A DNA stretch of 64,000 bases. Origin: Oceanispirochaeta sp. Lineage in GTDB: Bacteria > Spirochaetota > Spirochaetia > DSM-2461. Numbering within the stretch: the stretch's first letter is position 1; each line of letters opens with the position of its first letter. Made by a program: the position numbers and the translations under genes. Positions 13,337 to 17,825 of this stretch are shown here, one piece after another. The notes under the pieces are model-generated. The model made no database searches. It was not told the origin of the DNA and saw only the letters and a list, made by a program, of their open reading frames with translations. Location of the stretch: the NCBI GenBank assembly GCA_963663385.2, contig CAXXXD010000002.1, positions 1,088,001 through 1,152,000 on the forward strand, read 5' to 3'.

Positions 13337-13414
13337 GACCCCTCTCACTCTCCCCGAAGGGGAGATGCAATTGGAAGGTCGCACCCCTCCCTCCGGAGGG
13401 GGCTGGGGGAGGTC
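13337..13414. repeat. REP doublet (type A 13337-13365 plus inverted type B 13384-13414)
   Basis: Same two-part arrangement as 8501-8630, again between convergent genes. Confidence 0.75.
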
Positions 13415-14391
13415 TACAGCTGAATTCTCAGGTTGGTTGTCATACCCAGGGTCTGGTTGGTAATACCGTAGTTCAGACCGAAGTCAATTTTAAACAGGGG
13501 CAGGTTCAGTCCGGCTCCGCCGAAGAGACGAAGGGCTCCGCCGTTGACATCGGATGAGATAATGACACCTTCATCATCAATTTCAATTCCGGTAGCCGCT
13601 TCAAGCGCCGCGATATCCGTTGCGCTTATTTCGTTGCCGTCCAGAGAGACTGTTCCGTTTGTAATACCGCCGCCGGCTGTTGATACACCGTAGGAGTAAC
13701 CCATTCCGGCGGAAAGGTTGAGTAACAGGAGTTTCTTGCTGACCTGAGCCTTGAAATCAAAAATATTGACACCCCAGTCGAAGATCATATCCGTATCTTC
13801 AATGGCCAGTTCATTCCCGATCACTCCGTTGCTGACATCGGAGATATCCACTTCCTGATCCCCAACGGGAACAACCACTTCGCCCTTCAGGTAGGTATAA
13901 CCCACACCGACCGACAGTTCGGGCAGAACAGGATTTCCCTTCAGTACAGCGTATCGGACATCTCCGCCCAGCATAAGATAGTTCAGGGAGTAGTCTATAT
14001 CCATCAGATCCCTGGTATCCAGAACCCCGATTTTAAAACCCGCATCCATGGGAAGGATGGGGATTCCAACACGGGCATCCAGACTGTACATGGGAAGGGG
14101 AACGCCCAGACTGGAAAGGTCCGTCAGTGTGTCATCTCCGATCAGATCGGAAATATCTTCAAAAGCTGTGGAAGGTATAAATACGGCACCCATGGTAAGG
14201 CCTACTCCGAATCGGGGGAAAATCCCCGTATAGGCATCATTCCAGTTCAGTCCCATTCCGGCCATCAGGGGCAGTGTGCCTGCCACTTCATCGGCGAAAG
14301 ATTCAAATCCGTCCTCCACACCTTCCAGATCATACGCCGTTACGGAAAAAGACATTATTAATAGCAGAAATAGTATTGCTGTTTTCTTCAT
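13414..14391 (-). CDS. Hypothetical exported protein, probable outer-membrane beta-barrel
   Basis: Signal peptide, alternating hydrophobic/Gly strands (LSVGVGYTY, FKIDFGLNY) and terminal strand NLRIQL. Its RBS is the IS insertion site. Confidence 0.7.
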   Translation of the reverse strand: MKKTAILFLLLIMSFSVTAYDLEGVEDGFESFADEVAGTLPLMAGMGLNWNDAYTGIFPRFGVGLTMGAVFIPSTAFEDISDLIGDDTLTDLSSLGVPLPMYSLDARVGIPILPMDAGFKIGVLDTRDLMDIDYSLNYLMLGGDVRYAVLKGNPVLPELSVGVGYTYLKGEVVVPVGDQEVDISDVSNGVIGNELAIEDTDMIFDWGVNIFDFKAQVSKKLLLLNLSAGMGYSYGVSTAGGGITNGTVSLDGNEISATDIAALEAATGIEIDDEGVIISSDVNGGALRLFGGAGLNLPLFKIDFGLNYGITNQTLGMTTNLRIQL

Positions 14392-14450
14392 TTTTCACTC
14401 CTATAAAAAGTCAATCATAAGCCTATTAACAAGCTTACAATTGAACCGGA

Positions 14451-15563
14451 TTACCCAGTTTTTACGGCATTGAATGCAGCCGCCTGCATCTTCAAGTACT
14501 TATCATCCGGAACCATCTTCAACGGATCAAAGGGTTCACGGGTTTTCAATATGGAGTACACTACCGTACTCATCTTTCTTGCAGAGGCGATAATACTCGT
14601 GCCGCTGCCCTTGTTCTTCTTCATCGCTCTGTACTTCGTCATGATACGGTAATTGCCAGTCGTTTTCCGAGTTCTAACCATTCCCATAACACACTGAACA
14701 AATGCCGTTCTCAGTTCTACAGCCCCTCTCTTTGTTATATGCCCATGATGAATCGTCTCATTGGAGTTCTGCACCCATGGTACAAGACCGGCATAAGCCG
14801 AATACTTCTTGGCACTGGCGTACCGCTTGATATCATCCGTATAGGCCCTAATAGTCGATGCCGTTATCAATCCGACTCCCGGGATCGTCTGCAATAACTG
14901 TACATCCTCATCTTCCTTTACAAGTTCCAGCAGGACTTTCTCTAACTGCTTGACCTGGTTCGAAACCTGATCTATCGTAGAAAGCAGCGGTTCTATCGCT
15001 TTGGCAGCGCTTCCGAAACTCCTATGGTCCACGAGACCGATGAGGATGCGCTGCCTTTCTTTTTTACTCTGCAGCGCAGCTCTTTTTGTTTCAATTCCAT
15101 ACCCTAGAAGCAGTCCGTGAACCTGATTCTTCAAAGATACGACTGATTTAACAAGGATAGTTCTGGATTTAAGAACTCTACGGATATCCTCACTCTCCTG
15201 AGAACAAAGCTGTGATTCGGGAAGCATATCTTTTTCCAAGAACTCTGCTAGAGTTCTGGCATCATGCTTATCCGTCTTTTTCACTGATTCATTTACAACT
15301 TTGAATTTCAGTGTATTCACAACCACCACCTCAATCCCTGCTAGCAATAGCTTGTTACGGAAGAACCGGGCATTTCCTGTTGATTCCACTGCAGCCCTAA
15401 CATCAAGGCCCTCTTCTGTATAGGACACTGCTTTCTCAAGAAATGCTCTGTAACCGTCCTCAGAGGTCGGATACATTCCTGATTCACAAATGCTTCTATC
15501 ATCACTCAGGAAACAGACTGTTAACTGGGATTTGTGCAGATCCACTCCGATACTCATCTTCAT
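14451..15563 (-). CDS. IS110-family (DEDD RuvC-like + Tnp domain) transposase/recombinase
   Basis: SIGVDLHK, VESTG, KTDKHDA, LQTIPGVGLITA, YAGLVPWVQNS and GHITKRG motifs. Start at MKMSIG after AGGAG. Confidence 0.95.
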   Translation of the reverse strand: MKMSIGVDLHKSQLTVCFLSDDRSICESGMYPTSEDGYRAFLEKAVSYTEEGLDVRAAVESTGNARFFRNKLLLAGIEVVVVNTLKFKVVNESVKKTDKHDARTLAEFLEKDMLPESQLCSQESEDIRRVLKSRTILVKSVVSLKNQVHGLLLGYGIETKRAALQSKKERQRILIGLVDHRSFGSAAKAIEPLLSTIDQVSNQVKQLEKVLLELVKEDEDVQLLQTIPGVGLITASTIRAYTDDIKRYASAKKYSAYAGLVPWVQNSNETIHHGHITKRGAVELRTAFVQCVMGMVRTRKTTGNYRIMTKYRAMKKNKGSGTSIIASARKMSTVVYSILKTREPFDPLKMVPDDKYLKMQAAAFNAVKTG

Positions 15564-15574
15564 ACCTTCGCTCC

Positions 15575-15730
15575 TATTGCCTAAAACAGCGCCTGTACGG
15601 TGAATTGATTCCATTCTCCTATCCGGTCTCGAAGACCATTGAATGTTTCGGTCACGGCTCTTCATTCTCCTGTACGGTCTCGGAGACCAGTAAAAATGGC
15701 GAACAGTAACCTGGCTGTTCTAAACGATGT
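15575..15730 (-). ncRNA. Putative IS110 bridge/seek RNA in the left-end non-coding region (ends approximate)
   Basis: 5' hairpin GAACAG-N8-CTGTTC, then two modules CATT..GGTCT-N3-AGACC..AGGAG-AATG (15663-15698 and 15612-15645) carrying TACAGGAG (target flank) and ATAGGAG (element end). Confidence 0.75.
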
Positions 15731-15737
15731 TTAGAAC

Positions 15738-15746
15738 ATTGTATCA
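15738..15746 (-). promoter_or_regulatory. Extended -10 promoter (TGnTACAAT) in the IS left end
   Basis: The - strand reads TGATACAAT just upstream of the putative RNA, abutting the hairpin TGTTCTAAAC-GAT-GTTTAGAACA (15716-15738). Confidence 0.45.
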
Positions 15747-16033
15747 ATCCACAAGCCTATGAAGACTTTTTATCATTCCTCCTGTAAGCATAAAATTTAT
15801 GCTACTACAAAATTCTACTGTTTTTTTCGGGAAAATTCACGTTTTTTATTCGGAATGAGGGTAAATCCCCTCAATAGGAATTATGCTGCAGAAAGCGGCG
15901 GCTGTGCCGAACAAAAGTCCTGGACCAATTGGTCCGGGATTCTTACTGGTTTGCTTCAAAAAAACGGCTGTTATTCCCAATCATTCCGCAGGATTATAGA
16001 TAATGATAGAAAAAATGCAAAGATGCCGGTGTT

Positions 16034-16062
16034 AAAAAAAAACGGCCCCGCAGGGCCGTTTT
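16034..16062 (-). terminator. Intrinsic terminator of hcp
   Basis: AAAACGGCCC-CGCA-GGGCCGTTTT with a long T-tract on the - strand, 30 bp after the hcp stop. Confidence 0.8.
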
Positions 16063-16091
16063 CCTTAAAAAGACTATTTTCACATAGGGAA

Positions 16092-17732
16092 TCAGGCACC
16101 CATAAAAAGTTTTATATCATCTTCGACTGTACCGATCCCGGCAATGCCGAAGTTTTCAACCAGTACGTTTGCTACATTGGGTGAAAGGAAGGCGGGAAGG
16201 GTCGGGCCCAGGTGGATGTCCTTGACACCCAGGTAGAGCAGGGCCAGCAGTACGATAACCGCTTTCTGTTCATACCAGGCAATATTGTAGCTGATGGGCA
16301 GATCGTTAATGTCGTTCAGTTCAAATACTTCTTTCAGTTTAAGGGCGATAACAGCCAGGGAGTAGGAGTCATTACACTGGCCCGCATCCAGAACCCGGGG
16401 AATTCCGCCGATGTCACCCAGGGGCAGCTTGTTGTAGCGGTATTTGGCACAACCGGCCGTCAGGATAACTGTGTCTTCGGGAATCTGTCTGGCAAAGTCT
16501 GTGTAGTAGTCTCTCCCCTTCATTCTTCCGTCACAACCGGCCATTACAAAGAAACGTTTGATGGCACCGGTTTTAACGGCATCCACCACTTTGTCAGCCA
16601 GGGCGATTACCTGGTTGCGGGCAAATCCTCCGATGATTGTTCCCGTTTCAATTTCGGTGGGAGCTGAGCAGGTCTTTGCCTGAGCGATAATTTCAGAAAA
16701 ATCTTTTACTCCTCCTTCGGCAGGATCGGCGATATGTTTTACGCCGGGGTATCCGGAAGCTCCGGTGGTATAGATCCGGTCTTTATAGCTGTCTTTAACG
16801 GGGGTAATGCAGTTGGTCGTCATCAGGATGGGTCCGTTGAAGGAGGCAAACTCCTTGTCCTGTTTCCACCAGGCGTTTCCATAGTTCCCTACAAAGTGGT
16901 CATATTTTTTGAATGAGGGGTAGTAGTTGGCGGGGAGCATCTCGCTGTGAGTATACACATCCACACCGGTTCCTTCGGTCTGTTTCAGCAGCTCTTCCAT
17001 ATCTTTCAGATCATGTCCGGAAATCAGGATCCCGGGGTTAGTTTTTACTCCGATATTCACTTCCGTGATTTCGGGATTGCCGTAGGATTCGGTATTGGCC
17101 TTATCCAGTGCCGCCATTACGGAAACACCCTTCTCACCTGTTTCCATAGTGAGGGCCACAAGTTCATCCGCACTCAATGAATTGTCCAGTGTAGCCGCCA
17201 GTCCCCTGTACATAAACTTCAGAACCTCTTCGTCCTGTACTTTCAGGTGGTCCGCATGGCAGGCATAGGCCGCCATCCCTTTTAGCCCGTAGATGATCAG
17301 TTCCCGCAGGGAGCGGATATCCTCATTTTCTGTTGAAAGAACTCCCACAGTTCCGGCCTTTTCTTCCATGGCTGCGCCTGTAAGGGTAACGAAGGTAGCG
17401 GCGTCATGGAGTTCTGCCGGAACCAGGTCTCCCAGTTCTTTTTTCAGGCTGTCTCTGAGAGCGATATACTCGATGATGGTTTTTTCAAATACCGCACTGT
17501 CGAAGTTGGCATTGGTAATAGTCATAAAAAGACCGCGCATAATGGCCTGGTCTGCTTCGGGGAGGGCCTTGCCCTGAGCTCTGGCGGGGCCGGCTACCTG
17601 GGCAATCCCTTTCAGGGTATAGATCAGAAGATCCTGGAGGACCGCGGTTTCCGGAGTCTTTCCGCAGACTCCCCTGATTTCACAGCCGGTTCCTTTGGCG
17701 GCTTCCTGACACTGGTAACAGAACATATTCAT
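16092..17732 (-). CDS. hcp: Hybrid cluster protein (hydroxylamine/NO reductase)
   Basis: MFCYQCQE...GC...[29 protein letters not shown] and WYEQKA motifs. Start at MNMFC after AAGGAG. Confidence 0.97.
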
Positions 17733-17825
17733 TGATTGACTCCTTAACGGCCTCAAGCGACCGTAATTCAAACTGATTTCGTTTAGGTTCTGAGAACATT
17801 CTACCCGGCTTCTCCGGAAGCTTCC

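Follow-up and report, generated by a model that had tools for sequence, protein, structure and literature searches.

Bridge RNAs, or seek RNAs, have been known since 2024 (Durrant et al., PMC11208160; Hiraizumi et al., PMC11208158; Siddiquee et al., PMC11187229), the last of these reports covering just the target-recognising part of seekRNAs. In the insertion sequence IS621, the RNA is described as lying in the left end, upstream of the DEDD/Ser recombinase, with a 5′ hairpin, a target loop and a donor loop (PMC11208160, PMC11208158). Each loop consists of a stem, an internal loop and a hairpin, with one guide to the bottom strand on the left and one to the top strand on the right, and the two loops are pseudo-symmetric. 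A similar arrangement is proposed here for an element in 64,000 nucleotides of Oceanispirochaeta sp. DNA (assembly GCA_963663385.2, contig CAXXXD010000002.1, positions 1,088,001 to 1,152,000; the window). We propose that this IS110-family element is active and carries the sequence of a bridge (seek) RNA in its left end of 215 nt, with module 1 as the target loop and module 2 as the donor loop. From the sequence comparisons given below, we put the probability of this reading at about 85%.

An earlier annotation of the window (the original prediction) had already read this region as a bridge or seek RNA. The type of RNA, the assignment of module 1 to the target and of module 2 to the donor, and the direct matches on the 3′ arms were borne out by covariation among homologues, whereas its recombination core, its guide base at −8 and its compact scaffold were not. 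It recognised the target and donor loops but missed that the target is a Shine-Dalgarno sequence and start codon.

The insertion sequence and its recombinase

The ends of the insertion sequence were fixed by aligning the junctions of the copies in the same genome. It spans 1381 bp on the minus strand (14398–15778; all features below are on this strand unless stated), starts with GAATGATAAAAAGTC and finishes with GACTTTTTATAGGAG, that is, it runs from GAATG to ATAGGAG. The genome carries 10 copies with about 100% identity and the same ends in all of them, and in public DNA runs the element assembled as a separate 1386-nt repeat contig with a depth 8–13 times that of its flanks. The gene for a 370-aa recombinase (14451–15563) is preceded by a non-coding left end that extends over 215 nt from 15778 to the ATG at 15563, as the original prediction had estimated, and only 53 nt of the element lie downstream of it (14398–14450).

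The recombinase contained PF01548 (E 8.7e-21) and PF02371 (E 4.6e-19), and the hallmark of the IS110 family, a DEDD (RuvC-like) domain together with a Tnp-domain serine recombinase, was present. Among solved structures, it matched IS621 (8wt6, E 9e-16), mainly in the C-terminal domain, and ISCro4 (9t56, E about 1e-15). Residues D8, E60, D98, D101 and S267 were invariant in 22 relatives and aligned with D11, E60, D102, D105 and S241 of IS621, which were named as catalytic (Hiraizumi et al. 2024, PMC11208158). A repeat search found a subterminal inverted repeat of 10 nt with 100% complementarity, ATAAAAAGTC at 15764–15773 and GACTTTTTAT at 14403–14412, which was separated from each end by 5 nt, GAATG on the left and AGGAG on the right.

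Twin modules in a predicted, conserved RNA structure

The left end contains two near-identical modules. Module 1 (15663–15698) reads CAUU / UUUACU / GGUCU-ccg-AGACC / g-UACAGGAG / AAUG, and module 2 (15612–15645) reads CAUUC / aau / GGUCU-tcg-AGACC / gg-AUAGGAG / AAUG. Together they make up a direct repeat of 32 nt that is 84% identical and spaced 51 nt, and all the strings of the original prediction were found at these positions.

To compare the modules among homologues, 8000 candidate proteins were scored, 3236 of which were relatives at E ≤ 1e-20. Loci were fetched from species genomes (48, mostly Spirochaetota metagenome-assembled genomes (MAGs), plus Marispirochaeta and Rectinema) and from metagenomes (80), and the whole set had 138 members. 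In 107 of these loci, a simple parser recognised a pair of modules; six false calls (L021, L035, L056, L084, L099 and L118) were removed, so the twin-module layout recurred in the 101 loci that passed this sanity filter. The 31 loci in which no module pair was parsed included contigs ending early, disrupted left ends (L031, L033, L052 and L058), distant relatives (L056 and L057), one locus with a single module (L047) and one with a broken hairpin (L025). With more than 3000 protein relatives at that threshold and about 60 distinct RNA variants, the clade is a well-populated comparative set.

The structure to be tested was written from the window copy (P1, P2, the basal stems of module 1, both hairpins and P5) and compared with an alignment of 65 distinct sequences, in which the pairing partners were slid as controls. 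In total, 86.3% of the cells were paired, compared to 31.8–44.6% in the slid controls, and 280 cells were changed on both sides, compared to 56–128; two-sided changes were seen in 32 of the 51 pairs. RNAalifold, run independently, arrived at the basal stems of module 1 and at the two hairpins, with the guide arms unpaired. The minimum free energy fold had a z-score of −2.9.

In the predicted fold of the RNA, helix P1 closes the structure, which contains the 5′ hairpin P2 and two modules of similar build, each with a stem, an internal loop and a hairpin. In P1, the strand at 15743–15752 is paired with 15600–15609, and 8 of its 10 pairs (helix 1) were changed on both sides. P2 (15717–15737) has a 9-bp stem and the loop AUC, with 8 of 9 pairs (helix 2) changed on both sides. 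The predicted target-binding loop, module 1 with its basal stems P3a and P3b, occupies 15650–15711, where 94% of the cells of helix 3 were paired. Its hairpin 1, U-GGUCU-CCG-AGACC-G (15675–15689), was 92.8% paired, with two-sided changes in 4 of 6 pairs (helix 4). In the predicted donor-binding loop, module 2, which both covariation and conserved structure support, hairpin 2, U-GGUCU-UCG-AGACC-G (15624–15638), was 97.4% paired (helix 6). Its compensatory changes were AU in 34 and GC in 31 sequences at one pair and UA in 34 and CG in 28 at another, with none unpaired. Module 1 with its basal stems measures 62 nt and the conserved structured region about 150 nt, so the scaffold is not the compact one that had been suggested.

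The 3′ strand of P2 had two covarying partners, the local one and a segment just upstream of the ribosome-binding site of the recombinase (window 15715–15739 and 15579–15590; alignment columns 86–96 with 240–249). Such dual pairing may serve as a switch or form a pseudoknot together with P1. The 10 nt ACCGTACAGG occur identically at 15592–15601 and 15669–15678, a repeat which joins the end of hairpin 1 and the left guide to the P5 region. The downstream copy is kept in relatives while the guide varies, suggesting that the identity here may be a coincidence.

Proposed donor guides in module 2

The right-donor guide CAUUC (15641–15645) is predicted to pair with the right donor GAATG, the terminal extension of the left end (15774–15778). 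That CATTC is the reverse complement of GAATG had been noticed before, and the pairing covaried in homologues. Over positions +1 to +5 of the left end, 310 of 320 pairs in 64 element types were Watson-Crick pairs, while shuffles gave 273 ± 3.3 and none of 10,000 reached the observed value. At least six compensatory types were found, among them GAACG/CGUUC (7), GCACG/CGUGC (3), GTATG/CAUAC (3), GCATG/CAUGC and GTACG/CGUAC; elements with the left end GAGTG (4) had a G-U pair instead.

The left-donor guide AUAGGAG (15616–15622), on the 3′ arm of module 2, equals the left donor ATAGGAG at the right end (14398–14404) in 7 of 7 positions, as the original prediction held. The guide hardly varies within the family, homologues retain the right end ...TTTTATAGGAG, and the left donor rebuilds the Shine-Dalgarno sequence before the host gene. 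In the window copy, the left guides of the target loop and the donor loop differ by a single base. The four-base tails after GGAG (AAUG, AUUG, AGUG and ACUG) were compared by eye with the left end, and no match resembling a "handshake" was seen. The ribosome-binding site of the recombinase itself (15571–15577) is likewise ATAGGAG, the same as the right end and with a single difference from the target; it is not kept in relatives.

The left half of the target

The left flank of the window copy at 15779–15786 is identical to the 8-nt string TACAGGAG on the 3′ arm of module 1, which confirmed the match that was first noticed. The check proposed with it, covariation of this segment with the insertion flanks, was carried out on 86 unique insertions, in which it succeeded at two positions and failed at one. 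The guide equalled the flank at −7 in 68 of 86 and at −6 in 81 of 86 insertions, compared to 31.1 and 42.5 in shuffles. The T at −8 matched in 30 of 86, compared to 25.3 in shuffles, and was rejected as a guide base; hence the U at 15674, which precedes the guide, is unsupported. When one insertion per element type was used (n = 59), 172 of 236 positions matched, compared to 129 ± 4.9, and none of 10,000 shuffles reached this number.

The left-target guide predicted from these comparisons is NNAGGAG, seven bases, which is ACAGGAG in the window copy (15667–15673). Its left target, ACAGGAG at 15779–15785, is the Shine-Dalgarno sequence of the interrupted gene, was found in 8 of the 10 copies in the genome, and covaries with the guide at −7 and −6. 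No pairing signal with the left flank was obtained for the 5′ strand of module 1, and none at the offsets −2, +2 and +3.

The right half of the target

The candidate right-target guide is CAUUUUUAC (15690–15698), which makes up the 5′ strand of module 1. In the window copy, its complement GTAAAAATG meets the right target TGAAAAATG (14389–14397), which is the spacer and the ATG of an open reading frame (ORF, 13414..14391), at 7 of 9 positions, the ATG included. The covariation matrix contained an antiparallel diagonal, with guide position −i against right-target position +i over +2 to +6, strongest at +3 to +5 (z 2.6 to 4.8). In this register, the variable positions gave 129 matches in sum, compared to 95.6 ± 6.7, and none of 5000 shuffles reached this value; the sum was 120, compared to 93.2, when two GGG-type elements were left out. 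The original prediction had read TTTACT as the reverse complement of AGTGAA with one G-U pair. This holds for the strings, but its register (offset −1) gave only 99 matches, compared to 80.9 (p 0.003). Pairing of the 5′ strands across an AG/CT core, with the U that closes the hairpin, was not seen, the register one base over being stronger. The right-target guide appears to run from about +2/+3 to the start codon at +7 to +9, and the pairing seems real but weak.

Occupied sites fit the guide better than free ones. The right flanks of the 10 copies in the genome matched the guide complement at 5.4 of 9 positions on average, whereas 147 free ACAGGAG sites at gene starts matched at 2.97 of 9 (Mann-Whitney p 4.6e-5). 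The A/T-rich subset of these free sites reached 3.67 of 9, which was also below the 5.4 of the occupied sites (p 0.0014). Two elements on metagenome contigs (L113 and L127) sit at ...GGGAG|TAGGGAA, a site that no gene start follows; position −5 of their left guide is G, and their right guide contains CCC. Judging from their guides and flanks, these are cases of natural retargeting away from ribosome-binding sites, with both guides of module 1 changed.

Insertion at gene starts

The left flanks of the 10 copies in the genome end in ...(A)CAGGAG, with ACAGGAG in eight, GGCAGGAG in one and TAAAGGAG in one. After each copy there are 6–8 A/T-rich bases and then the ATG start of a gene that points the same way as the element. 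Since ACAGGAG stands before the element and the ATG of the gene after it, the element lies between a Shine-Dalgarno sequence and its start codon. Because the target and the right end both contain AGGAG, the right junction restores the ribosome-binding site at exactly the original spacing. The junctions of these copies and of the copies in OY776510, a Spirochaetia MAG, share GGAG and lack a target duplication, and the orthologous gene of a congener is preceded by uninterrupted ...CAGGAGTAAAAATG / ...GCTTCAGGAGTAAAAATG, which fits an insertion of this kind.

The preference extends across the clade. Where 100 nt or more of downstream sequence was present (72 distinct insertions), a start at +4 to +16 that opens a long ORF was found in 62. 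The ATG is at +7 in 41 of 79 insertions, compared to 21% of 1366 AGGAG sites resembling gene starts in the Oceanispirochaeta genome (28% counting +5 to +10 only). ACAGGAG occurs 1462 times in that genome; about 147 occurrences are at gene-start-like sites, and 8 are occupied.

Proposed mechanism

By analogy with the described systems, the RNA would bridge the circular element and a gene-start site, with module 1 holding the target and module 2 holding the joined ends. The 5′ strand of module 1 would pair loosely with the top strand to the right of the crossover, namely an A-rich spacer and probably the ATG. The DEDD/Ser recombinase would then exchange circle and target inside the common GGAG, and the base at −5 may differ between target and donor. 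Landing past the ribosome-binding site but before the start codon, in the orientation of the gene and without a duplication, would rebuild the GGAG-to-ATG spacing at the right end. The circular intermediate with its junction promoter, as well as the crossover point, are modelled on IS621, ISEc11 and ISEc21; junction promoters are known for IS621 (PMC11208158) and ISEc21 (PMC11187229).

In the sequence of the right end, TTGACT (14409–14414) was read as a putative −35 box that would be functional only in the circle junction. Its partner would be an extended −10 box, TGATAAAAA (15767–15775), in which GATAAA is kept at the left end of all homologues. In the circle, they would be arranged as TTGACT-17 nt-TGATAAAAA, with 11 nt of the right end and 6 nt of the left end making up the spacer to TAAAAA, and the promoter would lie about 20 nt upstream of P1. 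A scan for consensus promoters on the same strand of the integrated left end found none. The subterminal repeats thus overlap both putative promoter boxes, and GAATG would double as the right donor and part of the −10 region. The right end also contains a terminator-like hairpin followed by CUUUUUAU (14411–14444), comparable to a hairpin in homologues; together with its U-run, it may terminate transcription.

Weighing of the evidence

Several observations weigh against this reading. Transcription, the RNA ends and the binding of the recombinase are all carried over from IS621, ISEc11 and ISEc21. In the contigs of four DNA runs on the window, the repeat was collapsed with many flanks, and neither an empty site nor a circle junction was seen. 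No Rfam family was found at 15575–15780, and all 10 matches elsewhere in 14000–16300 were far below the gathering threshold. The short CAU/AUG basal stem (2–3 bp) drawn in the original prediction never covaried, and its third pair was unpaired in 14 of 65 sequences in module 1 and 19 of 65 in module 2. If formed, it must open on DNA binding, because the CAU(UC) of module 2 pairs with the left end. Two of the copies in the genome mismatch the guide in the left flank (GGCAGGAG and TAAAGGAG). In the OY776510 relative (L011–L022), 8 of 12 sites read TATAGGAG, which equals a donor-type sequence, and the guide reads UUUAGGAG, a mismatch at −7. The left-donor pairing is only consistent with the model, because guide and right end hardly vary and covariation is uninformative there. 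The right-target pairing is loose, with about 40–55% matches per position and a null result at +1 (14 matches, 14 expected); for some insertions, the fit improves with a bulge or with the ATG as the anchor, and anchoring on the ATG is about as good overall. The guides of IS621 overlap on a CT core (PMC11208158), whereas those predicted here abut at the end of the common GGAG with no overlap. Finally, the shuffle tests take no account of the relatedness among the elements.

The looseness of the right half could mean that a genuine bridge RNA is encoded here whose module 1 has no guide in its 5′ strand, and that the right target half is not read by pairing. The preference for A/T-rich spacers and start codons would then be a site bias, in that they melt easily or that selection removes other insertions. 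The right flanks of the 10 copies in the genome and of the 12 OY776510 copies have indeed no fixed sequence in common, the matches per position across insertions reach just 40–55%, with none at +1 beyond expectation, and the occupied sites are simply richer in A/T (5.3 versus 3.7 of 6). On the other hand, the complementarity exceeded composition-preserving shuffles, the occupied sites surpassed the A/T-rich free subset too, and the CCC/GGG change in L113 and L127 argues for a guide. We regard this explanation as unlikely.

More radical explanations dispense with the guide RNA altogether. The modules might act as DNA, as repeated subterminal binding sites of the recombinase; they are direct repeats close to one end of the element, and the guide RNA is here a prediction from the DNA sequence. 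The stems, however, stay paired through two-sided changes, such as the AU and GC variants of hairpin 2 with none unpaired, which points to a constraint on the single strand. The arms covary with sequence outside the element, and relatives of this enzyme family have been shown to use such RNAs (PMC11208160, PMC11208158, PMC11187229). It is equally very improbable that the region is merely a leader of the recombinase gene, with decoy AGGAG sites or an attenuator, and that the matches arise because AGGAG is everywhere. This would account for the three AGGAG motifs in the leader (15667–71, 15616–20 and 15571–75), and the segments with three-way covariation suggest alternative pairing beside the ribosome-binding site of the recombinase. 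The region might serve both as leader and as guide, yet a leader role leaves unexplained the matches at −7/−6 and in GAATG, where covariation was found outside the common AGGAG. We give the DNA-site and the leader explanation a very small chance each, and the bridge RNA with a target loop and a donor loop remains the preferred reading.

Other features of the window and of related loci

Inside the recombinase gene, the segment at 15024–15046 is 77–78% complementary to both modules over 22–23 nt, partly since the hairpins are palindromic. Upstream of the element, a GC-rich hairpin and U-run at 16031–16123 is the likely terminator of a 559-aa ORF (16092..17771). The Rfam matches at this place (RNAI, TarB and others), far below the gathering threshold, were attributed to this terminator hairpin of the neighbouring gene and rejected.

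Some related loci were rearranged. In a Rectinema subterraneum contig (L047:1328-1560), there is a single module, whose 5′ strand comes from module 1 and whose hairpin and 3′ arm come from module 2; the layout resembles a deletion between the two repeats, and the element is probably defective. The 3′ half of the hairpin and the left guide are duplicated in tandem in L054:1355-1385 (ACCGTGAAGGAG twice), and a right end of about 30 nt is duplicated in L030:2640-2680. In OY776510, small elements of about 110–145 bp lie directly upstream of three full copies (L017:1070-1287, L018:1040-1287 and L012:1200-1287). They open like the left end (GAATGATAAAA..., with the inverted-repeat partner at once after it) and close with ...TT(C)TTATAGGAG. 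Their appearance is that of non-autonomous miniature derivatives, at whose right ends the full element was inserted.

Comparison with known systems

IS621 is among the nearest described systems, although its protein match is distant and this element has 10-bp perfect subterminal repeats and a ribosome-binding-site target. Its loops measure 65 nt and 68 nt, similar to the 62 nt of module 1, and its promoter has one part in the right end and the other in the left end, as is proposed here (PMC11208158). The order of the guides differs: in each loop of IS621, the left guide is 5′ and the right guide 3′ of the stem-loop (PMC11208158), and this order is reversed in our element.

The reversed order, with a direct match on the 3′ arm, had been called unusual, but it is already published for IS1111-type seekRNAs (PMC11187229). 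In ISEc11, ISKpn4, ISPa11 and ISPst6, as here, the match to the top strand precedes, in the 5′ to 3′ direction, the one to the bottom strand, and the elements have subterminal repeats with terminal extensions (PMC11187229). The 10-bp perfect repeat falls within the 7–17 bp that define such repeats in the IS1111 group. By contrast, the RNA of these elements is downstream of a gene for a transposase of 330–350 aa, and their target matches overlap (PMC11187229), whereas here the RNA is upstream, the protein has 370 aa and the matches do not overlap. In the IS110 group (IS621-like elements), a long left end with the RNA goes along with short or absent subterminal repeats; the present element has a 215-nt left end and yet a 10-bp perfect repeat.

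Two further elements were compared by their descriptions alone (PMC11187229). ISEc21, of the IS110 type, also has an upstream non-coding region, and the transposases of its cluster have 345–385 aa, but its guide order is the opposite. ISMtsp17, a relative of the IS1111 elements, likewise has an upstream non-coding region and is thus a precedent for an upstream RNA; a non-coding region upstream of the gene, which was also considered unusual next to IS1111-like repeats, is on record for a few IS1111 relatives. Since the reversed order, the upstream region and the subterminal repeats each have a precedent, the combination of traits is a variant and not a new kind.

The protein lineage itself has been recorded before. 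Supplementary Table 1 of Durrant et al. (PMC11208160) lists a Spirochaetes protein with the motifs of the clade and an empty ISfinder column, indicating that the lineage was in their tree; a term search of the supplements of that report returned no description of the RNA or target of this clade. Searches of plasmids with tblastn gave, outside the spirochaetes, matches of at most 34% identity with generic names, from which no placement of the clade was made.

The clade may be a natural RNA-guided "gene-start trap", intermediate between the IS110 and IS1111 groups, in which the strands of the target loop together read NN-AGGAG, spacer and AUG and direct insertion in the sense orientation; we offer this tentatively, as somewhat short of an even chance. 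If true, the element could be transcribed from the host promoter and the host gene would be handed an identical ribosome-binding site. The RNA would then be placed upstream as in IS110, with the guide order and subterminal repeats of IS1111. Aiming at the Shine-Dalgarno sequence and start codon, and restoring the split site, gives tidy access to thousands of similar, transcribed and tolerated sites per genome. For annotation, it matters that genes downstream of such elements retain an intact start region.

Bridge and seek RNAs are being engineered, and natural variants reveal which parts of the scaffold can be changed. In this clade, the RNA lies upstream as in IS621 and yet the guides stand in the opposite order, and target and donor have a common segment of 4–5 nt in place of a dinucleotide. 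A full-text literature search of a limited collection found no IS110-family element aimed at ribosome-binding sites. Compared to the described systems, the distinctive feature of this clade is the targeting of translation-initiation regions.

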